DNA of 64,000 nucleotides from an uncultured Chloroflexia bacterium (lineage in GTDB: Bacteria > Chloroflexota > Limnocylindria > Limnocylindrales > CSP1-4), in contig CAWEIJ010000002.1 in the NCBI GenBank assembly GCA_963809215.1, positions 2,019,220-2,083,219 of the forward strand. The letters are read 5' to 3'. Both the position numbers and the translations under genes were made by a program. Positions 18,763-37,343 of the stretch are shown piece by piece; position 1 is the first letter of the stretch; the number at the start of each line of letters is the position of its first letter. Below the pieces are notes generated by a model, which worked only from the letters and a program-made list of their open reading frames with translations, was not told the origin of the DNA and did not search any database.

Positions 18763-19764
18763 TCGGCTCGCCCGCCGGCTCTCGAGGACGCTGCCGAGAA
18801 TCAGGACCCCGATGAGGATCACGCCCTGGGCGACGAGCGCGAAGTTCGGGTCGAAGCTCAGGAACGTCATGTTGTTCTGGATGATCTGGAGGACCATGAC
18901 GGCCACGACCGGGCCGAACACCCCGCCCCGGCCGCCCGCGAGGCTGACACCGCCGAGAACGACGGCGGCGACGCTCTCGAGGGTGTAGGGCCCCGGGACC
19001 GGCGTGCCGATGCTCGTGCTCGCAGTGAGCGCCAGGCCGGCCACGGCCGCGAACAGGCCGGTCAGCGCGTACGCGACGATCTTGGTCCGGCCGATGGGGA
19101 CGCCACTGCGGAAGGCGGCCAGCTGGTTGCTGCCGACGGCGTAGAGCGAGAGGCCGACGCGCGACCTCGCGATCGGGATCCAGATGACCGCGACGATGAT
19201 CAGGAGAACGATCGCCGCCTTCGGGATCCACGGGTTGCCGAACGGTCCGATCACGAGGTCCATCAGCCACGGCGACGCCGCTCCGCCGGGGGCGGCCCGG
19301 ACCAGCAGCGCGAAGCCCGCCCAGACGAACGACATCGCGAGCGTCACGACGATGTCCGGCACCCGCGTGACGACGACGAGCGAGCCGTTGATCGCGCCGA
19401 GCACCAGGCCCAGGATGAGCACGCCGACGACGACGGCAAGGCCGGTCTCCGCGCTCTGACCCTCCATGAGCGTTGCGGCGATGACGCTCGTGAGCGCCAT
19501 CATCGAGCCGATCGAGAGGTCGATCCCGCCCGCGATGACGGCGACCGCCTGGGCAACCGCGGCAAAGCCCAGCGGCAGGATCGAGATCCCGAGCCCCTGG
19601 ATCCCCGCCACGCCGTAGCTCGGCTGGATGAGCTTCGTGAAGACCAGGAGGATGGCCAGGAGCCCGAGGAGCCCGATCGTCCACGTGCTCCGCTGCGCCC
19701 GTGAGCCGATCGCCCTCGCCCAGCGCGCGGACGGAGCTCCGGCCGGTGCGGTCACGGCGCTCAC
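18760..19764 (-). CDS. sugar ABC transporter permease (RbsC/AraH-type)
   Basis: GTG start overlapping the ATPase stop (GTGA); hydrophobic 8-10 TM pattern. Confidence 0.85.
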   Translation of the reverse strand: MSAVTAPAGAPSARWARAIGSRAQRSTWTIGLLGLLAILLVFTKLIQPSYGVAGIQGLGISILPLGFAAVAQAVAVIAGGIDLSIGSMMALTSVIAATLMEGQSAETGLAVVVGVLILGLVLGAINGSLVVVTRVPDIVVTLAMSFVWAGFALLVRAAPGGAASPWLMDLVIGPFGNPWIPKAAIVLLIIVAVIWIPIARSRVGLSLYAVGSNQLAAFRSGVPIGRTKIVAYALTGLFAAVAGLALTASTSIGTPVPGPYTLESVAAVVLGGVSLAGGRGGVFGPVVAVMVLQIIQNNMTFLSFDPNFALVAQGVILIGVLILGSVLESRRASR

Positions 19765-21359
19765 TGGCCGCTCCCCTGCCCGTCCGCGCGCGCCGTCTCC
19801 ACGCCCGACGATCGCGTCCCGTCCGGGATCCTCGGCGCGACCGCCTCCGGCGCCACCGCCTCCGGCATCGCCGCGTCGGACTGCAGGTGGTAGGCGGCAC
19901 GCAGGAGCGTCGCTTCGTCCGCGTTCGCGCCGGTGATCTCCTCGACCACCCGGCCACCGAAGATGACGATCGCGCGGTCGCACACGAGCTGCACCTCCTT
20001 CAGCTCGGAGGTGTAGAGCAGCACGGCCGCCCCGGCCTCGGCGAGGTCGCGGAGCAGGAGGTAGATCTGCTGCTTGGTCCGGATGTCGATCCCGCGGGTC
20101 GGGTCGAAGCACAGCATGGTCCGCACGCCGCCCGCGACCCAGCGAGCGATCGTCACCTTCTGCTGGTTGCCGCCCGACAGGCGTCGAACCTCGTTTCCGG
20201 CGCGGGCGTCGATCTGGAGCCGGGAGACCGCCTCGTCGACCGTCTGGCGTTCCGCGCGGAGGTCGATCAGCCCCCACCTCCGGACCCGCGTCGTGAAGGG
20301 CAGGGCGATGTTCTCGCGAACCGAGCGCTGCATGAGGAGCGCCTCGGCACGGTCCGCAGCCACGAAGACGAGACCGGCCCGGATCGCGTCGGCAGGATGA
20401 CGGAACGAGGCCGCCGCGCCGTCCACGAGGAGCTCGCCGCTGCTCGGGCGCTGGGAGCCGGCGAGGATGTCGAAGAGCTCGTCCTGCCCCTGGCCCTCGA
20501 GCGCCACCACTCCCAGCACCTCGCCCGGGTAGAGCTCGAACGAGACGTCCTGGAGCTTGGTGCCGGAGGCGAGCCCGCGGACCGAGAGCCGGGGCGTCGT
20601 CGCGACCGCCCGGTGGGCGGCCGTCCGTCCGGCGACCGCAGGCATCTCGCCGGCGATCTGGCCGAGCATGAGCTCGATGATCCGCTCCTCCGACCCGGGC
20701 GTGACGTCGACGACGCCGACGGTCTCGCCCTCACGGAGCACCGTCGCCCGGTCGCACACGGAGGCGATCTCGATGAGGCGGTGCGAGATGAAGATGATCG
20801 AGCGGTCTCCGCCCCGGTGGCTGCCCACGACCTCCAGGACGCGCTGGGTCAGGTTCGCGGGAAGCGCCGCGGTCATCTCGTCGAGCATCAGCACGTCGGG
20901 CTCGATCGCGAGGGCGCGGGCGAGGTCGATGATCCGGAGCGAGGCCAGCGGCAGTCGCCGCGCCATGCTCGACAGGTCCTGGTCCTCGAGGCCCAGCTCG
21001 TGGAGCCAGTGGCGGAACGGCTCCAGCGGCGTATCGGTGAGGCGCAGGTTGGCCCGGATGTCGAGATCCGGGATGAGCGACGGCTCCTGGTAGACGGAGA
21101 CGAGCCCGCCGCGGCGCGCCTCGGCCGGGGAGTGGACCGTCCGCTCGCGGCCGCGGACCGCGATCCTGCCGGAGTCCGGATGGACTGCGCCCGTCAGGAT
21201 CTTGACCAGGGTGCTCTTGCCGGCGCCGTTCGCACCCATGAGCGCATGGACCTCGCCGGGGCGCACGGCGAGCGAGGCGGACCTCAGGGCCACGACGGCG
21301 CCGTAGGTCTTCGAGACGTCGGTGGCCTCGAGCAGGAGGCCGGTCGCGGTGGCAGTCAT
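19761..21359 (-). CDS. sugar ABC transporter ATP-binding protein with two nucleotide-binding domains (RbsA/MglA type)
   Basis: Two Walker A motifs (GANGAGKST and a second NBD), LSGGNQQK signature, and Walker B motifs. Confidence 0.9.
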   Translation of the reverse strand: MTATATGLLLEATDVSKTYGAVVALRSASLAVRPGEVHALMGANGAGKSTLVKILTGAVHPDSGRIAVRGRERTVHSPAEARRGGLVSVYQEPSLIPDLDIRANLRLTDTPLEPFRHWLHELGLEDQDLSSMARRLPLASLRIIDLARALAIEPDVLMLDEMTAALPANLTQRVLEVVGSHRGGDRSIIFISHRLIEIASVCDRATVLREGETVGVVDVTPGSEERIIELMLGQIAGEMPAVAGRTAAHRAVATTPRLSVRGLASGTKLQDVSFELYPGEVLGVVALEGQGQDELFDILAGSQRPSSGELLVDGAAASFRHPADAIRAGLVFVAADRAEALLMQRSVRENIALPFTTRVRRWGLIDLRAERQTVDEAVSRLQIDARAGNEVRRLSGGNQQKVTIARWVAGGVRTMLCFDPTRGIDIRTKQQIYLLLRDLAEAGAAVLLYTSELKEVQLVCDRAIVIFGGRVVEEITGANADEATLLRAAYHLQSDAAMPEAVAPEAVAPRIPDGTRSSGVETARADGQGSGQ

Positions 21360-21441
21360 CGGTACCAGCTGCTTGGAGGAGAGCGCGAGGGACGCCGGTC
21401 CGACCGGCGTCCCTCGCGTGAGCTGCGAATGCGGTAGCTGG

Positions 21442-22575
21442 CTACGCGCCCTTGCAGCTTGCCGGAACGGTATTGGGATCGTACGTGGTCCAGCCCTGGA
21501 TGGACAGGCTGAGCGGCCACAGCGGGTCGAGACCCGGAACGGACACCCATGCCTTCAGCGCCGTCTTGCCGGCGTCGGTCGTGTTGTCGAGCAGGACCGG
21601 GTCCAGCAGGATCGTGTTCGGCTTGGCGCCGGCCGAGGCGGTGACGGCCTCGCCGTTGAGGAGCTTGAGCGCAAGGGTGATGCCGGCGCCACCGACGGAT
21701 GCGGTGTTGGTCACGGCCGCGCCCTTCAGGCCCGGGAAGTTCGTGGGATCGAGGAGCTGTGCGACGAAGCCACCGATGTCAGCATCGGCGATCGGCACGA
21801 ACGGCTTGTTGGCAGCCTTGATCGCATCGACGATCTGCTTGCCCATGCCCGACGCCCAGATCCCCTGGATCTTGTCGTACTGGCCGCTCTGGATGAAGTC
21901 ATTGGTCAGCTGCGTGGTCTTGGCCGGGTCCCAGCCCGTGAACACGCCCTGGTTGTTCGGGACGATCTTGATGTTCGGGTACTGCTTCAGGATGTTCTGG
22001 AAGCCGATGTCGCGATCGGAGTCGGCCGGGTGGCCGGCGAGGCCGCGCGTGTACCAGACCGTGCCCGTGCCGCCCATCTGGTCGAAGAGCCACTTGGCGC
22101 CGAGCTCCGCGTACTTGACCTGGTTGTTGTACAGGTTCCAGGTGCTCGGATCGGTCACGTATGCGTCAACGGAGACGGTCACGATGCCGGCGGCCTTGGC
22201 CTCGGCGAGGGCCGGGTTCAGGGCGTTCGGGTCGTTCGGGTTGAAGACGATCGCGTTGACGCCCTTGGCGATCAGGCTCCGGATGTCGGAGAGCTGACCC
22301 GCCGCGTCCGTGTTGCGATGGATGACGGTGAGGTTCGAGACGGCGCCCGAGGCCGTGGCCTGGGCCTTGGCGGTGCAGACCTGCTCCTCGCGGAAGCCGT
22401 TGCCCACGCTGGCACCGTTCGAGTACCCGATGGAGTACTGCTTGGCCGCGGCGCTCGCAGCCGCCGACGGCGCGGCCGCCGCCGAGGGTGACGGCGTGGC
22501 GCTGCCGGAGCACGCTCCGACGACGACCGCGATCGTGGCCAGCGCGGCCACGCTCCGGGAAAGACTGAGCTTCAT
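21442..22575 (-). CDS. ABC transporter sugar-binding lipoprotein (periplasmic-binding-protein type I)
   Basis: MKLSLSRSVAALATIAVVVGACSGS lipobox followed by a PBP type I pattern. Confidence 0.85.
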   Translation of the reverse strand: MKLSLSRSVAALATIAVVVGACSGSATPSPSAAAAPSAAASAAAKQYSIGYSNGASVGNGFREEQVCTAKAQATASGAVSNLTVIHRNTDAAGQLSDIRSLIAKGVNAIVFNPNDPNALNPALAEAKAAGIVTVSVDAYVTDPSTWNLYNNQVKYAELGAKWLFDQMGGTGTVWYTRGLAGHPADSDRDIGFQNILKQYPNIKIVPNNQGVFTGWDPAKTTQLTNDFIQSGQYDKIQGIWASGMGKQIVDAIKAANKPFVPIADADIGGFVAQLLDPTNFPGLKGAAVTNTASVGGAGITLALKLLNGEAVTASAGAKPNTILLDPVLLDNTTDAGKTALKAWVSVPGLDPLWPLSLSIQGWTTYDPNTVPASCKGA

Positions 22576-23022
22576 GAAACTGGACTCCTCCATCCTCCGA
22601 CCGCGGGCTCTCATCTGGAGCACCGGCCGAACCGTTTGGGCGTCGTCTCGCGTGATCGCTGGATTACGCACCTCCTCGCTTACGAATCGCACGGGCGAGC
22701 CGCGCATGTTCCCGGAAGGTTTCGTTGAAGGCAGGGCCCGACAGCCCGGCCCCGGGGGCGCCACGGCGCTTGATGGACCCGGACACCGCGCAGGGCCCGC
22801 CGGTGGATCGTCGCGGCGGGGATCCGGATGACGGTCGCGACGCCGGCGGCTCTCACGATGGCGACCGCGCGAGGATGCGACCCGGGTCCAACGGAACCGT
22901 CCGGGCCGCCGATGGTCACCATTCCGTCCGCGCCCGCGACCCGGGCGGCAGGTGCAATCGCGGCCGCGCGATCCTGATCGTGCGACTCGCCGCGAGGAAC
23001 GGGACGTGCGGGATGAGCGGCA

Positions 23023-23760
23023 TCAGGCGGGACCTGCCCCGCCCGCCGGCACCTCGACGGCAGCCCGGCCTGCCTTGCGCGCGCGAAAGTCCAGGATGAT
23101 CGCCTCGGTCGCCGTGGCGCCGATCCGGGTGACTCCCAGCTCCATGACGGCCAGGAGCGCGTCGAGCGTGCGGACGCCGCCGGCCGCCTTGATGCGAACG
23201 TGGGGCGACGTGTTCGCGCGCATCAGGCGCAGGTCGTCGTGGGTCGCGCCCGAGGGGGCGAAGCCCGTGCTCGTCTTCACGAAGTCCGCTCCCGCGGCCT
23301 CGGACAGGCGGCAGGCCCGGACCTTCTCGTCGTCGGTCAGATAGGCGTTCTCGAAGATGACCTTGACGATCGCCCCGGCGGCATGCCCGACCTCGACCAC
23401 CGCGCGGATGTCCGCCTCCACGTCCGCATCGCGACCGGACTTGAGCGCGGCGATCTGGAGGACCATGTCCAGCTCGGTGGCGCCGTCGGCGAGCGCCCGC
23501 CTCGCCTCGAAGACCTTGACCTCGGTGGCGTGGTTGCCATGCGGAAACCCGATCGTGGTTCCGACGGCGACGTCCGTGCCCTCCAGGAGGGACTTCGCCC
23601 GCCGGACGTCGGCCGGGCGCACGCAGACCGAGGCGACGTCGTACGTCGCGGCAAGGCGGCAGCCCGCCTCGACGAACGCGTCGTCCAGCTCGGGCCGCAG
23701 CAGGGAGTGGTCGATGGTCTTGGCGATGTCGCGCTCGGTGAGCGTGTCGATGGAGAGCAT
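23023..23760 (-). CDS. deoC: deoxyribose-phosphate aldolase
   Basis: DHSLLRP, VCV, KTSTGF and IKAAGGVR motifs. The real start is at MLSIDTL. Confidence 0.85.
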   Translation of the reverse strand: MLSIDTLTERDIAKTIDHSLLRPELDDAFVEAGCRLAATYDVASVCVRPADVRRAKSLLEGTDVAVGTTIGFPHGNHATEVKVFEARRALADGATELDMVLQIAALKSGRDADVEADIRAVVEVGHAAGAIVKVIFENAYLTDDEKVRACRLSEAAGADFVKTSTGFAPSGATHDDLRLMRANTSPHVRIKAAGGVRTLDALLAVMELGVTRIGATATEAIILDFRARKAGRAAVEVPAGGAGPA

Positions 23761-23780
23761 GGAGCTCCTGCCCGGGATCG

Positions 23781-24695
23781 TCACTTGCAGTACGGCCGCA
23801 GCACGTCCCTCGCGATGAGGAACCCCTGCCTGACCTTGTCGTCGGTGCCCTCGAAGCGCCGATCCTCGTGCTCGATGATGCAGTCGCCCTCGAACCCTGA
23901 CCGGTAGAGCTCGGAGAAGATCACCGACCAGTCCACCTCGCCGAGCCCCGGGATGCGCGGGATCTGCCAGCCCATGCCCATCGAGAAGATGCCCCGCTCG
24001 TAGAGCCCGTCGCGATCGATCATCAGGTCCTTCGCCTGGAAGTGGAGGACGTGGGCGCCGAACTCCTTGAGGAACCGGCGCGCGTCGATCATCTGGAGGA
24101 CCAGGTGCGACGGATCGAAGTTGAGCCCGATCGTCCCGCCCCACTGCTCCAGGATCCGGCGCCACATCCGCGGCGTCGTGGCGATGTTGTGCCCTCCCGG
24201 CCACTCGTCGTAGGAGAACAGCATCGGGCAGTTCTCCAGGGTGATCTTCCGGCCGTGGTCGTTCGCGAAGGCCACGATGTCGGGCCAGACCCGGAGCGCC
24301 TCCTCCCAGTTCTCGTCCTGGTTCCTGGCGCCGTCGCCGCCCATGAACGTGTTCACGAGCGGCACATCCATCTTCTCGGCAGCCGTGATGACGTGCTTCA
24401 GGTGGCTGATGACCTGCGCGCGGTGGGCCGGGTCCGGGTGGAGCGGGTTCGGGTAGAAGCCGAGGCCCGAGATCGAGATTCCCTTGCCCTCGAGCTCACT
24501 CACGATCTCGGTGGCCTGCGCGGATGACAGGTTCGCAACGTCGATGTGGCTCGTCCCCGCATACCGGCGGGTGGGGCCGGTGGCCTTCGGCCAGCATGCG
24601 ATCTCGAGGACCTCGAATCCCGCGCCGGCCGCCCAGTCGGCCACCTCCATGAGCGGCGCGGCGGGGAACGGTGCGGTCAGGAAGCCGAGCTTCAT
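23781..24695 (-). CDS. sugar phosphate isomerase/epimerase (xylose-isomerase-like TIM barrel)
   Basis: TIM-barrel AP-endonuclease-2/xylose-isomerase-like pattern; start at MKLGFLTAPF. Confidence 0.8.
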   Translation of the reverse strand: MKLGFLTAPFPAAPLMEVADWAAGAGFEVLEIACWPKATGPTRRYAGTSHIDVANLSSAQATEIVSELEGKGISISGLGFYPNPLHPDPAHRAQVISHLKHVITAAEKMDVPLVNTFMGGDGARNQDENWEEALRVWPDIVAFANDHGRKITLENCPMLFSYDEWPGGHNIATTPRMWRRILEQWGGTIGLNFDPSHLVLQMIDARRFLKEFGAHVLHFQAKDLMIDRDGLYERGIFSMGMGWQIPRIPGLGEVDWSVIFSELYRSGFEGDCIIEHEDRRFEGTDDKVRQGFLIARDVLRPYCK

Positions 24696-24815
24696 GTCAG
24701 CCGAACCTCCGGGCTCAACGTGGCGGGATTCCTGGGCAGCCCATGATTGTCGATAATCGATTGTGGAGCGTATCACGTCGCCGGGGTCGGTCAAGGCTGG
24801 TCGGGGACGCGGTGC

Positions 24816-25976
24816 TCATGCGGTTCGGGAGACCTCGACCCAGCGGCCGGTCCGCGAGCTCTCGAGGACCGCATCGCCCACGAGCATCTCCTCGTGCCCG
24901 TCGGCGAATGTCGCGTACGAGGGGTTCCGGGACGGGGCCCCGGCGAGGATGTCCGCGTAGATCGCGGCGAAGACCGCGCCGAAGGTGTCGGCGAAACCCT
25001 CCACGTGCCCGCCCGGGAGCCGGGCGGCGGAGCTCCCGCCGGCGTTCATCAGCGCGGGGTTCCGGAGCAGGAGCTCGTTGGGCCGGTCGCGGTGGCCGAT
25101 CCAGAGATGGTCAGGCTGCTCCGAGTCCCACGCCACCGCGGAGGCGGCGCCGTCGATCTGGTAGGCGAGGCTGTTCTTGCGGCCGGGGCTGAGCTGCGAG
25201 ATCGCCACGCAGCCGCGCGCGCCGCCCTCGAAGCGCAGGAGGATCGTCGCGACGTCCTCGGTGTGGATCTCCACCGGGATCGTCTCCACGGCCCGCTCGG
25301 TCGAGAAGGTGAGGACGGGGCCGGCGGGCTTTTGGCGGACCGGGATGAACGTGGCGAGGTCCGCCATGACCGCCTCGACCCGGCGCCCCGTCAGGAACGT
25401 GGTCAGGTCCAGCCAGTGCGAGCCGATGTCGCCCACGGCTCGCAGCGCGCCGCCCCGGTCCGCCTCCAGGCGCCAGTTCCAGTCCGTGTCGTAGAGGAGC
25501 CAGTCCTGGAAGTAGCGGCCGGTGACGAGCCGGACGTCGCCGAGCCCGCCGTCGCGGACCAGGCCGGCCACGTGCTGGTTCAGCGGGTAGAAGCGGATGT
25601 TGAAGTTGACGGCGTTGACCAGGCCGCTGGCCGCGGCGATCCCGACGAGCTCCGCCGATTCCGCGGAGGTCATGGCCAGCGGCTTCTCGCAGATCACGTG
25701 CCGGCCGGCCGCCAGGATCTGGCGCACCTGCGGATGGTGGAGCTCGTTCGGCGACGTGACGTGGACGACCTGGACGGCGTCGTCCGCGAGGGCCTCCGCC
25801 AGGTTCGCGTAGGCGCGGGGCAGGCCCAGCTCGGCAGCCCGCGCGACACCAAGCTCCGGCGTCGCGTCCACCAGCCCGACGACGCGCACGCCGATCCGGC
25901 GCAGCGCCTCGATGTGAACCGTGCCGATGAAGCCGCTGCCGATGACGGCGGTTCCGATGTCGCTGACGTGCCTCAT
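24816..25976 (-). CDS. Gfo/Idh/MocA-family oxidoreductase
   Basis: VIGSGFIGTVHIEAL Rossmann motif and EKPLA motif. Confidence 0.85.
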   Translation of the reverse strand: MRHVSDIGTAVIGSGFIGTVHIEALRRIGVRVVGLVDATPELGVARAAELGLPRAYANLAEALADDAVQVVHVTSPNELHHPQVRQILAAGRHVICEKPLAMTSAESAELVGIAAASGLVNAVNFNIRFYPLNQHVAGLVRDGGLGDVRLVTGRYFQDWLLYDTDWNWRLEADRGGALRAVGDIGSHWLDLTTFLTGRRVEAVMADLATFIPVRQKPAGPVLTFSTERAVETIPVEIHTEDVATILLRFEGGARGCVAISQLSPGRKNSLAYQIDGAASAVAWDSEQPDHLWIGHRDRPNELLLRNPALMNAGGSSAARLPGGHVEGFADTFGAVFAAIYADILAGAPSRNPSYATFADGHEEMLVGDAVLESSRTGRWVEVSRTA

Positions 25977-26071
25977 CACAGACTCCGGTCGCGGCGCGTC
26001 ACCGGCAGCCACCTGCCGCTCGCGCGCACGCCCCATGGTATTGATGGCCAGTCTCGGCCAGGGCGATGGCC

Positions 26072-26125
26072 GGCGGCAATGACAAGAGCGGCCGATTAAC
26101 TGTCAGGACCGGCTGGAGCGGGCCA
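26072..26125. promoter_or_regulatory. left copy of a ~37-54-bp inverted repeat (GGCGGCAATGACAAGAGCGGCCGATTAACTGTCAGGA...) ~100 bp upstream of the minus-strand oxidoreductase operon
   Basis: 36/37 identical to the reverse complement of 27421-27457. Contains outward-facing TTGTCA/TTGACA -35-like hexamers. Confidence 0.6.
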
Positions 26126-26311
26126 TCGGTGGCCTCCCGCCGGCGCTGGGTCGGGGCCCGCCCCACCCTGGGCGGCTCTCTCCCCCGCCGGGGGTGCGCC
26201 TGTTCCGTCCGGTTTTCCGTCCATTTGGCCCTCCTGCCGACAGGCCAGTGGGCCCGATCATCGGCCCACGGCCCCAGCGTCTCCCGGTCGCCGGCCGTGG
26301 CGAACCTGGGC

Positions 26312-27280
26312 ATGGAGGAACTCGTGGCGGTCTTCTTCTGGCAGCACGAGCTCGACCCGGGCTTCCCGCTGTCGCTTCTCGAATACGAGACGCGCACCGC
26401 CGACGACCAGATGCACTGGCACGAGTACTTCGAGATCGCGCTCTGCCTGGAGGGGGGCGGGCGGTTCCAGTTCGGGCGGCGGAGCTACCCAGCGGAACCG
26501 GGTGATGTCTTCCTGATCGACGACGCGGAGCCGCACGTGGGCGTGGCCGACGCCTCCGGACGGATGCGCCTGCTCCTGACGCTCTTCCGGCCTGAGCTCA
26601 TCGCGGCGCCGGGTGGGCGGAGCTTCGATGCCGAGTACCTGTCGCCCTTCCGGTGCGGCGGACGCCCGTTCGCGAACCGCCTCCCGGCCGGCGGTGCTGC
26701 CGCCGGCGAGGTGCGGCCCATCCTCCTCGAGCTCAAGGAGATCTGGGACCGGGAGGATCCTGGCGACCGGCACCTCCTGGATGCGAACCTGCGCCGCGTG
26801 CTCGGCGTCCTGGTCCGCCATGCTCGCGCGCACGAGTCGGTGCGGGACGACGCGGCTGCGCCGGACGATGCGGCCGGGCCCGCCGATCGCCACGAGCACG
26901 TGCGGCCCGTCCTGAGCTACGTGGAGCAGCATTTCCGGGAGAGCCTGACGCTCGAGCGGGTCTCGGAGCACGTGCACGTGAGCGCCTCACGCGTGCGCCA
27001 CCTGTTCAAGGACGCGACGAGCGTTGGCTTCAAGGAGTACGTCACGAACCTGCGCCTGGCCGAGGCCAAGCGGCTCCTCGTGACCACCGACATCTGCGTG
27101 CAGGAAGTGGCCTACACCGTCGGCTACACGAACCTGAACCAGTTCTACAAGGTGTTCGGGCGCTACTCCTCGATGTCGCCCGCCGATTACCGACGCTACT
27201 ACCAGCCGTCGGGTGGCGCAGGCGTCGTGCTGCGGCTGGACCGCGAGCGTGCCCCCGAGGGACCCGTGCGCGTCGCCTGA
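26312..27280 (+). CDS. AraC-family transcriptional regulator (N-terminal cupin sensor plus C-terminal HTH)
   Basis: C-terminal HTH_AraC pattern (VSEHVHVSASRVRHLFKDATSVGFKEYVTNLRLAEAKRLL...YTNLNQFYKVFGRY). Confidence 0.85.
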   Translation: MEELVAVFFWQHELDPGFPLSLLEYETRTADDQMHWHEYFEIALCLEGGGRFQFGRRSYPAEPGDVFLIDDAEPHVGVADASGRMRLLLTLFRPELIAAPGGRSFDAEYLSPFRCGGRPFANRLPAGGAAAGEVRPILLELKEIWDREDPGDRHLLDANLRRVLGVLVRHARAHESVRDDAAAPDDAAGPADRHEHVRPVLSYVEQHFRESLTLERVSEHVHVSASRVRHLFKDATSVGFKEYVTNLRLAEAKRLLVTTDICVQEVAYTVGYTNLNQFYKVFGRYSSMSPADYRRYYQPSGGAGVVLRLDRERAPEGPVRVA

Positions 27281-27403
27281 CCAATCGGCCGGGTCTCCCC
27301 GGTCGGGCAGTCCGGGTCCAGCGTCCCGGTCCGGGTCCAGCGTCGTCCAGGCGCGGCCAGGTGCGGCGGCGCGGCCAGGTCCGGCCATGCGCAGGCCGCG
27401 ATG

Positions 27404-27457
27404 GAGTGGGCACCAGCCGCTCCTGACAGTTAATCGGCCGCTCTTGACATTGCCGCC
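27404..27457. promoter_or_regulatory. right copy of the inverted repeat (TCCTGACAGTTAATCGGCCGCTCTTGACATTGCCGCC), ~97 bp upstream of the plus-strand OYE/FadH gene
   Basis: Mirror of the 26072-26125 copy. TTGACA -35-like hexamer oriented toward 27554. Confidence 0.6.
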
Positions 27458-27553
27458 CGTGCTCGCCGGGCACGAGACTGGCGCGAGACGCGCACCGGTC
27501 GGGGCGTCCCGCCTCCGCTGCGGATGCGACCCGCGCGAGACAGGGAGAGCTCC

Positions 27554-29728
27554 ATGCCGTCGTTCCCGCACCTGTTCAGCCCGATCCAGCTCGGCGGCCT
27601 GGAGCTGCCGAACCGCGTGGTCCACGTCCCGACGGACATCAGCTCGTCCCATGCCGACGGCGAGGTGAGCGAGCGCGACATCCACCACCACACCGACATC
27701 GCGCGCGGCGGGGCCGGGTTCATCATCGTGGGCGCCACGACGCCGGACATGAAGACCGGGCGGCCGACCGTCACGTGCCTGGTGGCCGACGGCGACAACT
27801 ACATCCCGGGCCTCGCGCGGCTCGCCGAGGGGATGCACCGCTACGGCGCGCTCTGCGCCGTCCAGCTCCAGCATCCCGGCCGCCAGTGCGCGATCCCGCG
27901 GTACAACACGCTGGGCGCCACCGACCGCGTGCTCAAGCTCCCATGGTCGGCGGGACACGAGATCATCTACGAGAACGCCGAGGAGAAGGGCAAGGAGATC
28001 CGGGCGGCCTCGATCTCCGAGATCCTCGAGCTCGTCGACCTCTTCAGCGAAGCAGCCTGGCGGGTGAAGCAGGCCGGCTTCGATGCCGTGGAGCTCCACG
28101 CGGCGCACGGCTACCTGCTCTCCGAGTTCATGAGCCCCTTCCTCAACATGCGCAACGACCGCTTCGGCGGCAGCTTCGAGAACCGGATGCGCTTCCCTCT
28201 CGCGGTCGTCGACTCGATCCAGAAGAAGTGCGGCAAGGGCTTCCCGGTGCTCGTGCGCTACTCCTTCGACGAGTGGTACGCGGGCGGGCGCGGAGCGGAG
28301 GAGGGCGTCGAGATCGCGCGAGTCCTCGAGCGGGCGGGGTGCGCGGCCGTGGACCTCTCGATGGGAATGCAGGAGAGCCCCGGCGCCGGGTTCGACCCGA
28401 TGCAGTACCCGCAGGGCTGGGCGACCTACGCCGCCGAGGCCGTCAAGAAGGCGATCCGGATCCCGGTCATCACCAGCCATTCCCTGCGCGACCCGGAGTA
28501 CTGCGAACGGATCATCGCGGAGGGCAAGACCGACCTCGTCGGCCTGGCCCGCCAGCTCCTGGCCGACCCGTACTGGCCGGTCAAGGCGCAATACGGGCGG
28601 GTGAAGTCGATCCGGAAGTGCATCTCCTGCCTGGGCGGCTGCTGGCAGGAGTCGCTCATGGCGAAGCACGAGATCGCGTGCTCGATCAACGCGGCGTGCG
28701 GGAACCCTGCCTACGCGGAGATGAAGCGGACGACCACGGCGGTGCGGATCGCCGTCGTCGGCGGTGGGCCGGCGGGCATGGAGGCGGCGCGGATCGCCAC
28801 GGAGCGCGGCCACGCGGTGACGCTGTTCGAGAAGGCCGGGGAGCTGGGCGGCGCGCTGCTCTACTGCTGCCTGGTCCCGGGCAAGGAGAAGATGCGCTGG
28901 TACCTGGACTGGATCCGGAACCAGCTGCTCGACCTCCGCGTCGACATCCGGCTCGACCACGCCCCCACGGTCGACGAGCTCCGCGGGTTCGACGTCGTCC
29001 TCAACGCGACCGGGGCGATCTCGTACGTCCCCGACGTCCTCGGCGCGGCGGACGCGATCGTGCCCTTCGAGGAGGCGATGGCCTGCCCGAAGATCGCCTG
29101 CGAGTGCCATCCCGGCGCGCGCACCCTCCACAAGCTCGGGCAGCACGTCCTCCTGTGGGGCGACCACTACGCCGCGGCGGACACGGCCGCGTTCCTGGGC
29201 AGCATCGGCCGGCAGGTCACCATCGTCACGGAGAAGCGCGAGTTCGCGGCGGAGTGCGAGGTCATCCACATGTACGTCCTGCGCAAGCGGTTCGCGCAGG
29301 GCGACGCCGAGGTGCTCACCTCCCGCCCGTTCAAGCACCCGGTCACGGTGATCACGAACGCCACTGTCCGCGAGGTGCGCGCGGGCGAGGTCGTCATCGA
29401 GGACCACGAGTTCGGCCGCACCACCCTGCAGGTCGACGACGTGGTCTCGTGCCACACCCGACCCGCGACCGAGCTCTTCACCGGGCTCCAGGCCGCGGGC
29501 GTCCACGTGGTGAACGTCGGCGACTCGGTTCGGCCGCGTACTCTGTACCACGCGGTGAAGGAAGGATCGGCGTTCGGGCTTGCGGTGGACGAGCACATGC
29601 TCTTCAACTCCAACCACGCGATCCTGAACGAGCTGCCGATCGACGTCCTGGCGCAGCTCCAGCGCGAAGAGACCCCGGCCTACTCCCGCCAGCAGGTCAT
29701 CGTTCTCGCCGGGAGGCGCGATGCCTGA
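27554..29728 (+). CDS. NADH:flavin oxidoreductase (Old Yellow Enzyme TIM barrel) fused to a FAD/NAD(P)-binding pyridine-nucleotide-disulfide-like domain (2,4-dienoyl-CoA-reductase-like architecture)
   Basis: OYE motifs (HAAHGYLLSEF) plus a 4-Cys cluster CISCLGGCWQE and VVGGGPAGMEAA Rossmann motif. Confidence 0.85.
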   Translation: MPSFPHLFSPIQLGGLELPNRVVHVPTDISSSHADGEVSERDIHHHTDIARGGAGFIIVGATTPDMKTGRPTVTCLVADGDNYIPGLARLAEGMHRYGALCAVQLQHPGRQCAIPRYNTLGATDRVLKLPWSAGHEIIYENAEEKGKEIRAASISEILELVDLFSEAAWRVKQAGFDAVELHAAHGYLLSEFMSPFLNMRNDRFGGSFENRMRFPLAVVDSIQKKCGKGFPVLVRYSFDEWYAGGRGAEEGVEIARVLERAGCAAVDLSMGMQESPGAGFDPMQYPQGWATYAAEAVKKAIRIPVITSHSLRDPEYCERIIAEGKTDLVGLARQLLADPYWPVKAQYGRVKSIRKCISCLGGCWQESLMAKHEIACSINAACGNPAYAEMKRTTTAVRIAVVGGGPAGMEAARIATERGHAVTLFEKAGELGGALLYCCLVPGKEKMRWYLDWIRNQLLDLRVDIRLDHAPTVDELRGFDVVLNATGAISYVPDVLGAADAIVPFEEAMACPKIACECHPGARTLHKLGQHVLLWGDHYAAADTAAFLGSIGRQVTIVTEKREFAAECEVIHMYVLRKRFAQGDAEVLTSRPFKHPVTVITNATVREVRAGEVVIEDHEFGRTTLQVDDVVSCHTRPATELFTGLQAAGVHVVNVGDSVRPRTLYHAVKEGSAFGLAVDEHMLFNSNHAILNELPIDVLAQLQREETPAYSRQQVIVLAGRRDA

Positions 29729-29764
29729 TCGTCGCGGTCCGCATCGGCACGCGAGCTCCCGGGC

Positions 29765-30802
29765 ATGAGCGGATCGGGTCCGGCCCTGCCCCGCGCGGAC
29801 GCGCCGCTCCGCGTGGGCGTCGTGGGGACCGGGTTCATGGGCGAGACCCACGTGGCCGCGTGGGCGGCCGAGGGCATCCGCGCCGTGATCCACGACGTGG
29901 ATGCCGGCCGTGCCGCGACGCTCGCCGACCGGTACGGGGTGCGAATGGCGGCCACCCGCGAGGAGCTTCTCGGCGCCGTGGACGTCGTGGACGTCTGCAC
30001 GCCGACGCATCTCCATGCCGAGGTCGCCATCGCCGCCGCGCGCGCCGGCTGCCACGTGATCTGCGAGAAGCCCATGGCGCGCACGCTGGCGGACGCCGAG
30101 GCGATGCTCGCGGCGGCGCGCGACGCCGGCGTCCGGCTCTTCGTGGCGCACGTGGTGCGGTTCTTCCCCGAGTACGTCGCGGCGCGGTCGGCGGTGCTCG
30201 ACGGCGCGATCGGCGAGCCCGGCGTCCTCCGCCTGACCCGGGCGAGCTTCCGCCCGCGACATCCCGCGGGGCACTGGTTCTTCGACCACGCCAAGTCGGG
30301 GGGGATCGTCCTGGACCTGATGGTCCACGACCTCGACTTCGCGCGCTGGATCGCGGGCGACGTCGTCGCGGTCCACTGCCGGTCCGCAAGCGTGGCGTAC
30401 CCCGGCGCGGGCGTCGACCACGCCGTGGCGATCCTCACCCACCGCTCGGGCGCGATCAGCCATGTCTCGGCGTCGTGGGGCTACGCTCCACCCACGTTCA
30501 CGACGTCGTTCGAGATCGCCGGATCGCACGGGCTCATCGAGCAGAGCTCGGCCGCGACCTCCCCGGTGATGCCGTCGCTGCTCGCGGGCGCATCGGACGG
30601 CGGCACCACGGCGCTGGCAGACACGGCGCTCGCCGGGGACCCGTTCCGGCTGGAGCTCGCGGAGTTCGCGCGGGCGATCCGCGACGGCACCGACGCGCGG
30701 ATCAGCGCCGAGGACGGACTGGCGGCGCTCCGAATCGCGCTCGCCGCCGACGAGTCCGCGCAGACTGGAGCGGTCGTCCGGATCGCGCCGGAGGCCGCGT
30801 GA
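29765..30802 (+). CDS. Gfo/Idh/MocA-family oxidoreductase
   Basis: VGVVGTGFMG and EKPMA motifs. Confidence 0.85.
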   Translation: MSGSGPALPRADAPLRVGVVGTGFMGETHVAAWAAEGIRAVIHDVDAGRAATLADRYGVRMAATREELLGAVDVVDVCTPTHLHAEVAIAAARAGCHVICEKPMARTLADAEAMLAAARDAGVRLFVAHVVRFFPEYVAARSAVLDGAIGEPGVLRLTRASFRPRHPAGHWFFDHAKSGGIVLDLMVHDLDFARWIAGDVVAVHCRSASVAYPGAGVDHAVAILTHRSGAISHVSASWGYAPPTFTTSFEIAGSHGLIEQSSAATSPVMPSLLAGASDGGTTALADTALAGDPFRLELAEFARAIRDGTDARISAEDGLAALRIALAADESAQTGAVVRIAPEAA

Positions 30803-31821
30803 TGGCCCTCGAGGCGCAGGGCGGCGCACCCGTTCGGATCGGCGTCCTCTCGGCCGAGCACGTCCACGCGCCTACGTACATCTCGCTCCTCGCCTCGATG
30901 CCGGGCGCTCATCTCGTGGGTGTCTGGGACGACGACCGGCAGCGGGCGGCGAGCGCGGCGGAGCCGGTCTCGACGCGCGCCTTCGCGGACGTCGATGACC
31001 TGCTCGAACGCGTCGACGGGGTCGTGATCGCGTCTGCCAACAGCCGCCACCGACGGCTCGCCGAGATCGCCGCTGCGGCGGGGGTGCACGTCCTGTGCGA
31101 GAAGCCGCTCGCCACCACCATCGACGACGCCCGCGCGATCGTGGACGCCTGCGCCGCCGCCGGCGTTCGCCTGATGACCGCGTTCCCGTCCCGCTGGAAC
31201 CCGGCCGCGCGAGCGCTCGAGTCGGCCGTCCGCACCGGGGCGCTTGGCACGCCGGTCTTCCTCGAGGGCGCGAACACCGGGACGATGCCGGACGTCCACG
31301 CGCCGTGGTTCGTGGATCCCGCGCTCGCCGGGGGCGGCGCCGTGACCGACCACGTGGTGCACCTGGCGGACCTCTACCGGTGGATCCTGCGCTCGGAGGT
31401 CGTGGAGGTCTACGCCGTCGCGAACCGGATCCTCCAGGAGCGGTTCGCCCGGGTCGAGACCGGTGGCCTCGTCTCGATGCGGTTCGCCAACGGCGTGTCG
31501 GCCACGATCGACTGCAGCTGGAGCAAGCCGCGCTCGTACCCGACGTGGGGCGGCCTCTCGGTGCAGGCGATCGGCACGGGCGGAGCGTTCGGCATCGATG
31601 CCTTCCGGCAGCGGCTCGCCGTCTACGGAACCCGCGACGTCGGCATCTCGTGGCGGGCGTGGGGCCCGGATGCCGATGCCGGGATGCTGGCGGAGTTCCT
31701 GTCCGCCGTCCGGGAGGACCGGGAACCGGCCGTCACGGGCCTCGACGGGCTGCGGGCGGTCGAGATCGTGGACGCCGCGTACCGCTCCATCGCTGCCGGC
31801 GCGCCGGTCCCGCTCGGATGA
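30802..31821 (+). CDS. Gfo/Idh/MocA-family oxidoreductase
   Basis: Start ATG overlaps the previous stop (TGATG). EKPLA motif. Hidden inside the long off-frame ORF 27775..31821 in the track. Confidence 0.8.
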   Translation: MALEAQGGAPVRIGVLSAEHVHAPTYISLLASMPGAHLVGVWDDDRQRAASAAEPVSTRAFADVDDLLERVDGVVIASANSRHRRLAEIAAAAGVHVLCEKPLATTIDDARAIVDACAAAGVRLMTAFPSRWNPAARALESAVRTGALGTPVFLEGANTGTMPDVHAPWFVDPALAGGGAVTDHVVHLADLYRWILRSEVVEVYAVANRILQERFARVETGGLVSMRFANGVSATIDCSWSKPRSYPTWGGLSVQAIGTGGAFGIDAFRQRLAVYGTRDVGISWRAWGPDADAGMLAEFLSAVREDREPAVTGLDGLRAVEIVDAAYRSIAAGAPVPLG

Positions 31822-32768
31822 CCGCTGCCCGGCACCTCGGGCTCGACCTCGGGGGAACGCAGCTGAAATGGGCGGTCGTGGAGACCGCGGACGGGACCTG
31901 GAACCGCCTGGCGACCGACCTCGTCCCGACCCGCGTCGACGCGGGTGCGGACGGGATCATCGAGCAGCTGGCGGAGACGGCCGCGGCGGCCGGCCCCGCC
32001 TGGGGCCCGATCGCATCGGTCGGCGTGGGGATACCGGGACGGTACGACGCCGCCGCGGGCCGCGTGGTCATGACGCCGAACATCCCGGTGCGCTGGGAGG
32101 GCACGCGCCTGGTGGCCCGGCTCGAGGCGATCGTCGGGGTGCCCGTTCATCTCATCAACGATGCCCGCGCGTTCACGCTCGCCGAGCTCCGCCTCGGCGC
32201 CGGGCGGGGCGCCCAGACGCTCATCGGCATGACGCTGGGCACCGGCGTCGGCGGCGGGATCGCCATCCGGGGCACGCTCCACCTCGGACATGACGGCGCG
32301 GCCGGCGAGATCGGCCACCAGACGATCGACCCCGACGGCCCGCTCTGCAACTGCGGCAATCGCGGCTGCGTCGAGGCGTTCGCCCGGGCGGACGTCATCG
32401 CCGCCACGTGCGGGACGTCCACGGTCGAGGAAGCGGTCAGGGCGGCGGCCGCGGGCGACGCGCGAGCGATCGATGGGCTCGCCCAGGTCGGACGGTACCT
32501 GGGGATCGGCATCGCCAACATCGTGACCGTCCTGACCCCGGATCGCGTCGTGGTCGGCGGCGGTGTCTCGGCGGCCGGCGAGATCCTGTTCGCGTCCGTC
32601 CGCGCCGAGCTCGACCGGCGGGTCCGGATGACCGGGACCGGTAGCGTCGAGCTGGTCCGGGCGGAGCTCGGGATCTGGGCCGGAGCGATCGGCGCGGCGA
32701 TCCACGGAGCGGAGGCCGCGGCGGACGCTGCCGGGATGACGGGACCGAGGAGGCAGATGAACCGATGA
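31818..32768 (+). CDS. ROK-family sugar kinase (glucokinase/N-acetylglucosamine kinase-like)
   Basis: LGLDLGGTQLKWAVV motif, CNCGNRGCVE zinc motif and ROK signature. ATGA overlaps at both ends. Confidence 0.85.
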   Translation: MTAARHLGLDLGGTQLKWAVVETADGTWNRLATDLVPTRVDAGADGIIEQLAETAAAAGPAWGPIASVGVGIPGRYDAAAGRVVMTPNIPVRWEGTRLVARLEAIVGVPVHLINDARAFTLAELRLGAGRGAQTLIGMTLGTGVGGGIAIRGTLHLGHDGAAGEIGHQTIDPDGPLCNCGNRGCVEAFARADVIAATCGTSTVEEAVRAAAAGDARAIDGLAQVGRYLGIGIANIVTVLTPDRVVVGGGVSAAGEILFASVRAELDRRVRMTGTGSVELVRAELGIWAGAIGAAIHGAEAAADAAGMTGPRRQMNR

Positions 32769-33910
32769 GCGACTTCGGGATCGTGAGCGGGCGCCTCGTC
32801 CTCGACGACCGCGTCGTCGCGGGCCGCGTCGTCGTCGAGGACGGTCGCATCGCGGCGGTCGAACCGGATCCGTCCGTCGAAGGCGGCCCGTGGATCCTGC
32901 CCGGCTTCGTTGACGTCCACGTCCACGGCTGGGGCGGGTACAGCGCGATGGGCCCCGCGCCGTCCCTCGATGGCATGGCGCGCGCGCTCCTGGCGCGCGG
33001 CGTCACGTCGTTCCTGCCGACCGCCGTCACTGCGCCGCTCGACGGGCTGCGGACCTTTGCCGAGACGGTCCGCGGCTGGATGCCCGGCGCCCCGCCGGAT
33101 GGAGCGGCGCCGCTGGGCTTCAACCTCGAGGGGCCGTTCGTCTCGCCCCAGCGCGTGGGCGCCCAGAACCCCGCGTTCGTGCGGGCTCCCGCCGATGTCG
33201 CGCTCGCCGATCTCGAGCCCCTGGTCGACGGCTTCCGGCTCACGACGATCGCGCCGGAGGCGCCCGGCGCGGTCGACCTGATCCGCTGGCTCGCCGCGCG
33301 CGGCGTGGTGGCGTCGCTCGGCCACTCCGTGGCGACGGCCGCCGAGGCGCACGCGGGCTACGACGCCGGCGCGCGGACGACCACGCACGTGTTCAACGCG
33401 ATGTCGGGGATCCACCAGCACACGCCCGGCCTCGCGGCGGTGGCGCTCTCGCGGGACGATGTCTACACCGAGCTCATCGCCGACGGCCACCACGTGGATC
33501 GCGAGCTGTGGCCGCTGATCCTGCGCACGAAGCCGGCGGACCGGCTCGTCCTGGTGAGCGACGCGATCGAGCTGGCAGGGACGCCGCTGGAGCGCGGCTC
33601 CCTCGGCGGCCTCGAGGTGCAGGTGCAGGGCGACCGATGCACGCTCGTGTCGAACGGCGCGCTCGCGGGCTCGGTCATCGCCCTCGACACGTCCGTTCGG
33701 AACCTCGCGCGGTTCGGGCTGGAGATGCCGCGGGTCGCCGCGGCGGCGAGCGCCAACCCGCTGGCGCTGATCGGGGTCACCGATCGCGGACGGATCGCCG
33801 CCGGCCTCCTGGCGGACCTGGTGGAGCTCGACGCGGCCTTCGTCGTGCAACGGGTCATGCGCGCGGGACGGTGGTTCGAGGGCCCCGGGGCCGCAGCACC
33901 CCGCGCGTGA
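32765..33910 (+). CDS. nagA: N-acetylglucosamine-6-phosphate deacetylase (amidohydrolase superfamily)
   Basis: FVDVHVHG and HxFNAMSG-type motifs characteristic of NagA. Confidence 0.8.
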   Translation: MSDFGIVSGRLVLDDRVVAGRVVVEDGRIAAVEPDPSVEGGPWILPGFVDVHVHGWGGYSAMGPAPSLDGMARALLARGVTSFLPTAVTAPLDGLRTFAETVRGWMPGAPPDGAAPLGFNLEGPFVSPQRVGAQNPAFVRAPADVALADLEPLVDGFRLTTIAPEAPGAVDLIRWLAARGVVASLGHSVATAAEAHAGYDAGARTTTHVFNAMSGIHQHTPGLAAVALSRDDVYTELIADGHHVDRELWPLILRTKPADRLVLVSDAIELAGTPLERGSLGGLEVQVQGDRCTLVSNGALAGSVIALDTSVRNLARFGLEMPRVAAAASANPLALIGVTDRGRIAAGLLADLVELDAAFVVQRVMRAGRWFEGPGAAAPRA

Positions 33911-37000: not shown

Positions 37001-37343
37001 TGACGTCGGCGGTTCCCGGGTTGTCGAGGCGGATCGCCCCGGCGTCATAGCAGGTGGTGAGGGTTCCGCATGCCGTCTGGCCCGGGACGGTGCCGCCCAG
37101 GAAGGTCGTGTTCGGAGCGCCGACCCAGGGAACCGGGAAGGCCGCCGGGTTCGGGTTGTTCGTCTCCTTGTCCTCGGCGTAGCCGACGGAGACGTTGAGG
37201 CCGCCTGCGCTCGAACCGGCGGCGATGGTCGCTCCGAGCAGGCCCTGGGGCGCGACGGCGACCGACGATCCGAACGCGGTCGCCGTCGCGAACACCAGGG
37301 CAAGGCCCGAGCGGACCCCCCGCTTCCAGCTCGATGCCTTCAT
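34002..37343 (-). CDS. giant secreted repeat protein (~1113 aa): signal peptide, Big_1-like Ig domain, lectin-like ~150-aa domain, 5 Ig-like 103-aa repeats, C-terminal lectin-like domain
   Basis: Start MKASSWKRGVRSGLALVFATATAFGSSVAVA with GGGGGG SD. Internal near-identical repeats. It is the lower part of ORF 34002..38720. Confidence 0.75.
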   Translation of the reverse strand: MKASSWKRGVRSGLALVFATATAFGSSVAVAPQGLLGATIAAGSSAGGLNVSVGYAEDKETNNPNPAAFPVPWVGAPNTTFLGGTVPGQTACGTLTTCYDAGAIRLDNPGTADVTVSSVSADIHSSVPGGKAFSLWGSFTVPAGKSVILTENPPTNNPGSDNFDTSGYPGNICTPVTVAPTVTITIAGVPTTLVDSTHVLDTGGIDRGYCGQNESIQWRAIGAAGSDTATLTLGPASASQPVGGQVTETALLQDGGGAVVPNVTVGFTIIVGPNAGVTGSAVTDATGHASFTYGSSVSGTDIVVASVTTVGSFRSNQASVTWGTSTNGWTGVDIGSPPVAGSDSLSNGTWTISGSGRDIGGTADQLHLVWQPLAADGGANARVLTQTNTNSRARAGVMLRQSTDAGAPFYALVVTPGAGLFVLQRPTTNANVVTIANIAGTVPAYVSVLRSGSIVTAYTSPDGVSWTPVAGSSQVLGVSGTVLAGMAVTSHSTTALGTATFGSVSLPTAAPPPPNNFTVTAKPSSLSVAAGAAGQTTIGTGLISGSAESITLSATGLPAGVTAAFSPASVTTGGSSTLTFSVGAAVPAASYSITVTGTSASATHSVTVKLTVTSSSPPPNNFSMSASPSSVSVVQGAAGGSTISTALVSGSAESISLAASGLPAGVTAGFSPASVTAGAGSALTLTVGSGVTPGTYPLTVTGTAPSATHTTSVSLTVTAPVTNDFSMSASPSSVSVVQGAAGGSTISTALVSGSAESISLAASGLPAGVTAGFSPASVTAGAGSALTLTVGSGVTPGTYPLTVTGTAPSATHTTSVSLTVTAPVTNDFSMSASPSSVSVVQGAAGGSTISTALVSGSAESISLAASGLPAGVTAGFSPASVTAGAGSALTLTVGSGVTPGTYPLTVTGTAPSATHTTSVSLTVTASTGGGLPSPWTDADIGSPAVAGSATYAGGVFTVSGSGADIYGTYDQFHYVYQPVSGNGTLIARVTSQTNTGSSNSKAGLIWKASTSSGSPYFLIAVNNSGVVKVQWKFSSSVQASTTYAFPNVWMKMVRSGSSFTAFLSSDGVAWTQVASTSLATIPTAATLGLEECSHVNTKLGTATFDNVSFTPGP
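34600..35530. repeat. 3 tandem, essentially identical 309-bp coding repeats (Ig-like domain units). The same unit recurs at ~38000-38620 in the neighbouring gene.
   Basis: Opposite-strand ORFs at 34642, 34960 and 35260 translate to identical 102-aa peptides; the period is 309 bp. Confidence 0.85.

Follow-up and report, generated by a model that had tools for sequence, protein, structure and literature searches.

An AraC-family regulator gene in an uncultured Chloroflexota genome is bracketed by two nearly identical segments in opposite orientation, which raises the question of whether the pair marks a mobile element, a DNA switch or the control sequences of two promoters. In the stretch of DNA analysed here (the window; 64 kb, G+C ~72%), 36 of 37 positions of the 37-mer at 26072-26108 agree with the reverse complement of 27421-27457, which bears out the 37-nt inverted repeat described by an earlier sequence-only reading. 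Allowing up to three mismatches, the 37-mer occurs exactly twice in the window, and 100 dinucleotide-preserving shuffles yielded no match; a 19-mer core put through the same test again gave two window matches and none in the shuffles. Repeat finding delimited the full arms as 26047-26119 and 27410-27482, each 73 nt long, 85% complementary and 1290 nt apart, with perfectly matching tracts of 25-37 nt. Pairwise alignment resolved this similarity into blocks, with a core of ~48 nt, ~15 variable positions and, on the outward side, a second shared block, GCCAGTCTCG. The earlier reading had described weaker similarity extending ~17 bp inward; an inward extension does exist, but it covers ~11 nt only (CcGGCTGGaGC), and most of the additional likeness lies outward instead (~25 nt). 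From the end of the 37-mer to the start codon of the neighbouring operon is 96-97 nt on each side.

26047-26119, minus strand: left arm, predicted operator-promoter module facing the Gfo/TIM/deoC operon (repeat pair; 78.6 bits with the position matrix described below; conserved upstream of Gfo in orthologous loci)
27410-27482, plus strand: right arm, predicted operator-promoter module facing the OYE-FadH operon (repeat pair; 80.2 bits with the same matrix; conserved upstream of OYE in orthologous loci)

The gene between the arms encodes a protein with an N-terminal AraC_binding/cupin-type domain (PF02311, 2.3e-14; PF07883, 4.1e-08) and a C-terminal DNA-binding domain (PF12833 HTH_18, 6.5e-20; PF00165, 6e-12). 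The latter matches E. coli AraC (2k9s, E=5e-10), and solved XylR domains match as well. The first ATG of the open reading frame, at 26066, falls inside the left arm. Because the closest homologues are 312-322 aa long (most of the 120 matches listed measure 296-330 aa), translation most likely starts at the ATG at 26312, which would make the left arm intergenic. Every named NCBIfam equivalog stayed below its cut-off for this protein, including the arabinose regulator AraC (NF007860, 77 bits against a cut-off of 208). By these profiles the regulator is thus a member of the AraC family and the orthologue of no named regulator; its closest homologue among the matches listed is 93% identical. A conserved block between the left arm and araC is probably the araC promoter region, judging from its conservation and orientation.

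26312-27280, plus strand: AraC-family regulator gene, 322 aa, N-terminal cupin/AraC_binding and C-terminal HTH_18 domains (Pfam; homologue lengths)
26214-26261, plus strand: araC-side block TTTCCGTCCATTTGGCCCTCCTGCC-N17-GATCAT, conserved and oriented toward araC in all araC-containing loci

Outside the arms, Pfam and NCBIfam agreed with the gene content previously read on either side. The left operon runs away from araC on the minus strand and its strand is continued by transporter genes; the right operon runs away on the plus strand. Matches to deoC and nagA lie above the NCBIfam cut-offs. The ROK protein matches PF00480 only, with no match to a DNA-binding domain.

23023-25976, minus strand: left target operon, first three genes (Pfam, NCBIfam, synteny)
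24816-25976, minus strand: Gfo/Idh/MocA oxidoreductase (Pfam/NCBIfam)
23781-24794, minus strand: xylose-isomerase-like TIM-barrel protein (Pfam/NCBIfam)
23023-23781, minus strand: deoC, deoxyribose-phosphate aldolase (above the NCBIfam equivalog cut-off)
21442-22764, minus strand: periplasmic sugar-binding protein, continuing the strand of the left operon (Pfam/NCBIfam)
19761-21359, minus strand: ABC ATPase, continuing the strand of the left operon (Pfam/NCBIfam)
27554-33910, plus strand: right target operon, comprising OYE/FadH, two Gfo/Idh/MocA, ROK kinase and NagA genes (Pfam, NCBIfam, synteny)
27554-29728, plus strand: OYE/FadH-type flavoenzyme (Pfam/NCBIfam)
29765-30802, plus strand: first Gfo/Idh/MocA oxidoreductase of the right operon (Pfam/NCBIfam)
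30802-31821, plus strand: second Gfo/Idh/MocA oxidoreductase of the right operon (Pfam/NCBIfam)
31842-32768, plus strand: ROK kinase (Pfam/NCBIfam)
32765-33910, plus strand: nagA, deacetylase (above the NCBIfam cut-off)

Two RNA-level candidates in this region were set aside. A search of 25700-27800 against Rfam at a permissive E-value returned one sub-threshold match inside araC (M23), dismissed because its 21 bits fall below the gathering score of 41. An RNA helix sequestering the Shine-Dalgarno sequence in the conserved OYE leader, modelled with RNAalifold, gained no support, with compensatory changes in 0/16 pairs and a covariation term of +0.56.

The arms were then compared with those of relatives whose AraC orthologues are 61-93% identical overall, ten loci with orthologues of 61-90% identity forming the core set. 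After a fuzzy search, a 49-column position matrix was built from 15 unique sites; its hits are confined to the two known sites in the 64-kb window and, across all loci, to the promoter sites. Within the ten-locus set, the motif stands upstream of both operons in every locus that has the same gene order, with both operons adjoining araC. In ~35 related loci from Limnocylindrales-like Chloroflexota, copies occur only upstream of one or other of the two operons, and their number per locus never exceeds two. Alignments of whole promoter regions in the operon-ward orientation gave a mean pairwise identity of 0.88 for a 45-nt block and of 0.96 (Gfo side) and 0.77 (OYE side) for the more outward block GAGACTGG, compared with 0.55-0.58 for the spacer between them and 0.45-0.54 for the upstream flank. 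Such block-wise conservation is the pattern expected of functional sites.

Loci with altered gene order separate the motif from the regulator gene. At one (L007), the OYE operon and araC diverge, the Gfo/TIM/DeoC genes continue the OYE strand so that the two operons are fused, and the single motif is upstream of OYE. Two others (L008 and L009) have the OYE gene only and one motif copy each, and in L009 an extra HTH_20 gene sits between OYE and araC. In a further two (L017, on contig CAVWSU010000006.1, and L030), the Gfo/TIM operon keeps its motif with no adjacent araC, the neighbouring gene being unrelated to the locus. Because the motif follows the operons in these rearranged loci, comparison of the sequences indicates that it is a property of the operon promoters and not of an araC-carrying cassette.

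The 45-nt block itself resolves into two 17-bp half-sites separated by 4 bp (17+4+17, a 21-bp register) with the consensus rGCCGyTCyTGwCAkT. The two half-sites, AGCCGCTCCTGACAGTT and GGCCGyTCyTGwCATTG, have 12 of 17 positions in common. Strong internal symmetry appears only as a direct repeat at the 21-bp offset (0.77, the next best offset reaching 0.52), and a palindromic reading of the half-sites was rejected, its best value being 0.53 against 0.77 for the direct repeat. A matrix for the half-site alone scores above 14 bits at only four positions in the 64 kb:

26098-26114, minus strand: left distal half-site HS1, AGCCGGTCCTGACAGTT (25.5 bits; 21-bp direct-repeat register)
26077-26093, minus strand: left proximal half-site HS2, GGCCGCTCTTGTCATTG, containing TTGTCA (26.0 bits; direct-repeat register)
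27415-27431, plus strand: right distal half-site HS1, AGCCGCTCCTGACAGTT (28.7 bits)
27436-27452, plus strand: right proximal half-site HS2, GGCCGCTCTTGACATTG, containing TTGACA (27.2 bits)

Neither the araC-side block nor the rest of either intergenic region contains a further isolated half-site of the araO2-like or autoregulatory kind that reaches 6 bits; the conserved araC-side block thus does not score as a half-site, and the half-site matrix found no distal half-site for AraC-style looping.

The promoter elements were located relative to this operator. The sequence-only reading had pointed to a TTGTCA in the left arm and a TTGACA in the right arm, both facing outward; the two hexamers are present as it described, but its proposal that they are -35-like fared less well. 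They lie 24 nt from GAGACT, the sole conserved -10-like element; their first base is T, C or G depending on the orthologue (the variants being CTGACA, GTGTCA and GTGACA); and the sequence 17 nt downstream of them is unconserved and lacks A2/T6. On these three grounds they were rejected as the primary -35. They are probably the TGwCA core of the proximal half-site rather than a -35. A second hexamer, TTGCCG, lies 6 nt further on and is separated from GAGACT by a spacer of 18 nt, or of 17 nt where the loci are most distantly related.

26074-26079, minus strand: proposed -35-like hexamer TTGCCG (CGGCAA on the plus strand), overlapping HS2 by 3 bp (sequence; nearly invariant in orthologues)
26050-26055, minus strand: proposed -10-like hexamer GAGACT (AGTCTC on the plus strand), inside the GAGACTGG block (block identity 0.96 against 0.58 for the spacer, Gfo side)
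27450-27455, plus strand: proposed -35-like hexamer TTGCCG (sequence; conservation; 18-nt spacer to GAGACT)
27474-27479, plus strand: proposed -10-like hexamer GAGACT (conserved block at a fixed spacing from the operator in all sites)

From their spacing and conservation, and from these only, we infer that TTGCCG and GAGACT serve as the -35 and -10 in a lineage whose promoter consensus is uncharacterised; GAGACT matches TATAAT at 3/6 positions. The start codon of the Gfo/Idh/MocA or OYE-FadH gene follows ~65-70 nt past GAGACTGG/GAGACT, with a GGAG ribosome-binding site. A strict sigma-70 consensus and terminator scan of 25900-27650 found nothing, which is consistent with weak, activator-dependent promoters.

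The reading of the inverted repeat that we consider likely is that a single AraC-type operator-promoter module is used twice, facing outward from araC, for two sugar-catabolism operons. That the arms form an inverted repeat would follow solely from the opposed directions of the two promoters, each facing away from araC. On this reading the locus is an ordinary regulon layout and not a mobile element. Symmetric, AraC-controlled outward promoters were what the sequence-only reading had favoured, and that interpretation gains support from synteny, from a motif that follows the operons, from the 17+4+17 direct repeats and from the restriction of the site to this locus.

Under the proposed mechanism, each half-site would accommodate one DNA-binding domain of an AraC-family dimer. 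The cupin domain would bind a sugar or pathway intermediate, the dimer would then occupy both half-sites at both promoters, and RNA polymerase would be recruited by contact at the -35 region in the style of a class II activator. Transcription would begin ~7 nt past GAGACT, near 26043 on the minus strand and 27486 on the plus strand, leaving a leader of ~68 nt before each first gene in which the GGAG ribosome-binding site lies. The outcome would be co-induction of the Gfo/TIM-barrel/DeoC genes and sugar ABC transporter with the OYE-FadH, the two Gfo oxidoreductases, the ROK kinase and NagA. In this scheme we infer that the AraC protein is what binds the site, that it activates and does not repress, and that a sugar or pathway intermediate is the effector; co-localisation and site geometry provide circumstantial support for the link between the AraC protein and the site.

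A more tentative suggestion is that operators and regulator form a co-evolving unit, possibly an undescribed Limnocylindrales-like catabolic regulon for an N-acetylated and/or deoxy sugar. Its members, an equally tentative list, would be OYE/FadH, three Gfo/Idh/MocA proteins, the TIM-barrel isomerase-like protein, DeoC, ROK kinase, NagA and the ABC importer. The enzyme set of this two-operon regulon matches no textbook sugar pathway. A literature search combining Limnocylindria and AraC found no papers. For a phylum-level lineage represented almost entirely by metagenomes, the present analysis supplies the operator/promoter of an AraC-family regulator with precise limits and comparative validation. 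It makes the regulator, the operator and the pathway's inducer directly testable, and the module could serve as an inducible promoter part for high-GC hosts. The principle is the standard AraC arrangement and nothing new; the value lies in a defined regulator, operator and regulon for uncultured Limnocylindrales-like Chloroflexota.

The closest parallel in design is the E. coli arabinose system. At P_BAD, araI1-araI2 comprise 17-bp direct-repeat half-sites in a 21-bp register, and araI2 overlaps by 4 bp the weak -35 of a promoter that reads CTGACG-18-TACTGT (PMC11983282, PMC2241862). The locus described here likewise combines a cupin plus double helix-turn-helix regulator with two 17-bp direct repeats in a 21-bp register, and its proximal half-site overlaps the hexamer proposed as a weak -35 (by 3 bp, against 4 bp for araI2), which is followed by an 18-nt spacer (TTGCCG-18-GAGACT). 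As in E. coli ara, one of the target operons is transcribed divergently from the regulator gene, and several promoters share one kind of operator. The E. coli ara regulon also includes the araFGH, araE and araJ promoters. The half-sites themselves are unrelated (rGCCGyTCyTGwCAkT here, TAGCxxxTxxxxCCxxA in E. coli), and, unlike E. coli ara, the present locus yielded no isolated distal looping half-site and no CRP site. Likeness to E. coli AraC is confined to the sequence of the DNA-binding domain, with no equivalog cut-off reached, and the host is an uncultured member of the Chloroflexota.

RhaS acting at rhaBAD is an AraC/XylS-family class II activator (PMC11983282). In common with XylS/Pm and RhaS/rhaBAD, both served by class II activators of the AraC/XylS family, the module described here would have two tandem sites at about -70 to -35, the proximal of which would overlap the -35 box, and a weak core promoter dependent on its activator. 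The half-sites of XylS measure 15 bp and have another consensus; those of RhaS are generally regarded as forming an inverted pair. Neither XylS/Pm nor RhaS/rhaBAD is known to place two outward promoters around the regulator gene.

Of the other explanations, the one that fares best accepts the operator-promoter as real and supposes that a different protein binds it, or that the AraC protein acts as a repressor. The two araC-less loci (L017 and L030) that keep the site can be cited for another binder, as can the extra HTH_20 gene of L009; the absence of an adjacent araC in the former would mean that the regulator acts in trans, that the site is decaying or that another protein binds it. Against this, only loci of this cluster carry the site, and araC accompanies it in every lineage except two; the ROK protein matches PF00480 and no DNA-binding domain. 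Repression would also be possible from an operator placed over the -35, but the weak promoter hexamers argue for activation, and 17+4+17 direct repeats upstream of and abutting a -35 are the pattern of AraC/XylS activators. We regard this alternative as rather unlikely.

Similarity between the arms might instead stem from a recent local duplication or from ongoing gene conversion, with the shared sequence having no function. In its favour, a genome's own two copies resemble each other more closely than do pairs drawn across genomes: the within-genome distance in ten genomes is 3.2 differences against 5.0 across genomes, and over the 45-nt block of 18 unique pairs it is 0.065 per site within against 0.098 across, with 0/20,000 permutations as low. 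The effect stops at the edges of the block. In the spacer, distances are 0.412 within and 0.435 across genomes (p=0.12), showing no co-variation, and in the next 20 nt the two sides are unrelated (0.70). Position 38 (the w of TGwCA) largely distinguishes the two sides, being T in Gfo-side copies and A in OYE-side copies, and the block is retained among orthologues even though their AraC proteins show only 61-93% identity. Lineages differ at block positions 34-35, the dinucleotide immediately before TGwCA in HS2, in having CT, CC or AG. Because homogenisation is limited to the 45-nt block and leaves the spacer unaffected, this pattern favours two sites that track the specificity of one protein over gene conversion. 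Gene conversion is not favoured as the cause of the within-genome likeness, neither spacer nor downstream sequence being homogenised, though the regions compared are short and brief conversion tracts might contribute; a functionless duplicate or conversion product is very unlikely.

A further alternative is a mobile origin, as a MITE-like or composite cassette in which the arms would be terminal inverted repeats and araC the gene mobilised. Likeness to a MITE is evident in two inverted repeats of 50-70 nt within 1.4 kb that bracket a single gene, and in perfectly matching tracts (25-37 nt) that exceed the typical length of an operator. Copy number speaks against it. The most conserved 20-mer was searched in one genome per species across 185,579 species and found in 10 stretches, nine of them this locus in Chloroflexota MAGs, whose labels read Limnocylindrales, Chloroflexia or Chloroflexota, and one in Nocardia; a degenerate pattern with 24 specified bases found 15 stretches in JGI metagenomes, all of them this locus with every site upstream of a Gfo or OYE gene. 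The copy number of the source genome is taken from these relatives, and near-exact patterns of this kind would miss degenerate sites. The sequence-only reading had named copies scattered at non-promoter locations as the mark of a MITE, and neither the species genomes nor the metagenomes hold any.

MITEs are also set apart by other features of the locus. There are two copies at one locus and never more. The arms separate from araC in relatives, staying with the operons where araC is absent (L017, L030) or the order is altered (L007-L009). Outside the arm ends, TATTGATG (26039-26046) differs from GCGAGACG (27483-27490), so the arms lack a target-site duplication. Transposase genes are absent from the vicinity, and conservation is not uniform but runs in blocks around a variable spacer, as protein-binding sites do. 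A mobile cassette is accordingly a most improbable account of the repeat.

The Nocardia stretch, the one match outside the Chloroflexota, has no matrix hit and no related genes nearby.

Equally improbable is an invertible switch in which recombination between the arms flips araC and changes expression: a pair of inverted repeats separated by 1.3 kb and matching perfectly over 25-37 nt would suit it, as would the reversed araC-side block of L017 and L030, but araC is never inverted, being divergent from Gfo and co-directional with OYE in 18/18 unique two-copy loci and in further araC-containing partial loci, the neighbourhood encodes no recombinase, and L017 and L030 lack araC altogether and so represent no simple flip. 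In these two loci the araC-side conserved block stands in the opposite orientation relative to the Gfo motif, and what was once the araC promoter, now directed into the Gfo operon, may have taken over control of that operon.

The AraC-family regulator gene araC has a conserved block beside it, and each of the two operons directed away from it (the Gfo operon, with Gfo/Idh/MocA, TIM-barrel and DeoC genes, and the OYE operon, headed by OYE/FadH) has a leader:

26214-26261, plus strand: conserved araC-side block, TTTCCGTCCATTTGGCCCTCCTGCC-N17-GATCAT
25977-26049, minus strand: leader of the Gfo operon
27480-27553, plus strand: leader of the OYE operon, about 70 nt, strongly conserved among orthologues

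The araC-side block was found in every araC-containing locus, always pointing toward araC, and the half-site matrix does not pick it up as an AraC half-site. It probably comprises the araC promoter (perhaps CTGCCG-16-GATCAT) together with an upstream site.

In two related lineages, represented by the comparison loci L017 (2349-2530) and L030 (748-929), araC is absent beside the Gfo/TIM-barrel operon; the neighbouring gene in L017, which starts MTLDVRWLGHVPYREAWDLQH, is unrelated to the locus in the window. Both retain the operator with a changed -35 region (CATTGGCRCT), and in both the araC-side block is reversed and now directed into the Gfo operon, an arrangement that may represent rewiring following araC loss. 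A third relative, L007, carries the OYE/Gfo/Gfo and Gfo/TIM/DeoC genes head-to-tail on one strand (3278-7835), divergent from araC, and its one operator copy precedes OYE. This gene order is a natural fusion of both operons. Two complete versions of the locus, encoding AraC proteins 81% and 78% identical to that of the window, occur on separate contigs of a single Limnocylindrales metagenome-assembled genome (JBBQRX010000008.1, loci L010, L014 and L019, and JBBQRX010000051.1, locus L018); either the two are genuine paralogues or the bin is mixed. An exact match to the 20-mer of the operator core in Nocardia sp. NPDC050799 (L020, 3794-3813) is attributed to chance; random expectation over 596 Gb is about four such matches, and the Nocardia stretch has no match to the 49-column operator matrix and no gene of the locus in its vicinity.

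In the RNAalifold prediction for the OYE leader, a GUCCC segment pairs with the GGGAG Shine-Dalgarno region, a structure left unsupported because none of the 16 pairs of the helix shows compensatory change. In the Gfo leader, a conserved TACCATG directly follows GAGACTGG, and GCGCGCGAGCGGCAG...CTGCCGGTGACGCGC makes up an imperfect GC-rich hairpin. L013 and L006 have lost this hairpin, which is therefore dispensable. A longer Gfo reading frame would begin at an in-frame ATG at 26036, but the orthologous gene calls, 386 aa in length, place the start at 25976. Two short tandem duplications, GTCCGGGTCCAGCGTC x2 and GGCGCGGCCAGGTSCGGC x2 (27310-27385, plus strand), come after the araC stop codon and before the right operator-promoter arm, in a stretch that is not conserved in orthologues. 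Because no terminator-like site was found downstream of araC, transcription may run on from it into the OYE operon.

The predicted regulon spans the following genes:

19761-33910: OYE/FadH flavoenzyme, three Gfo/Idh/MocA oxidoreductases, TIM-barrel isomerase- or dehydratase-like protein, DeoC, ROK kinase, NagA and sugar ABC importer

Only deoC and nagA exceed the cut-off of any named pathway model; one Gfo/Idh/MocA oxidoreductase has its best partial match to levoglucosan dehydrogenase, at 153 bits where the cut-off is 650. The enzyme set may constitute a pathway, so far undescribed, that acts on an N-acetylated or deoxy sugar.

Elsewhere in the window, a 309-nt tandem repeat occurs in 3.0 copies at 34570-35488 and 2.0 copies at 37978-38594, the copies being 98-99% identical. 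The repeats sit within a very long minus-strand reading frame (34002-38720, running on to about 42438) that probably encodes a giant, repetitive protein whose repeat unit is 103 aa long; the plus-strand reading frames tested in this region gave no Pfam match. GC skew is strongly positive from 34 to 46 kb. Within the long repetitive region lies a lone half-site-like sequence, AGCTGTTCGTGACGTTG (41430-41446, plus strand; 12.9 bits), the sole half-site match in the window between 6 and 25 bits and probably a product of chance.
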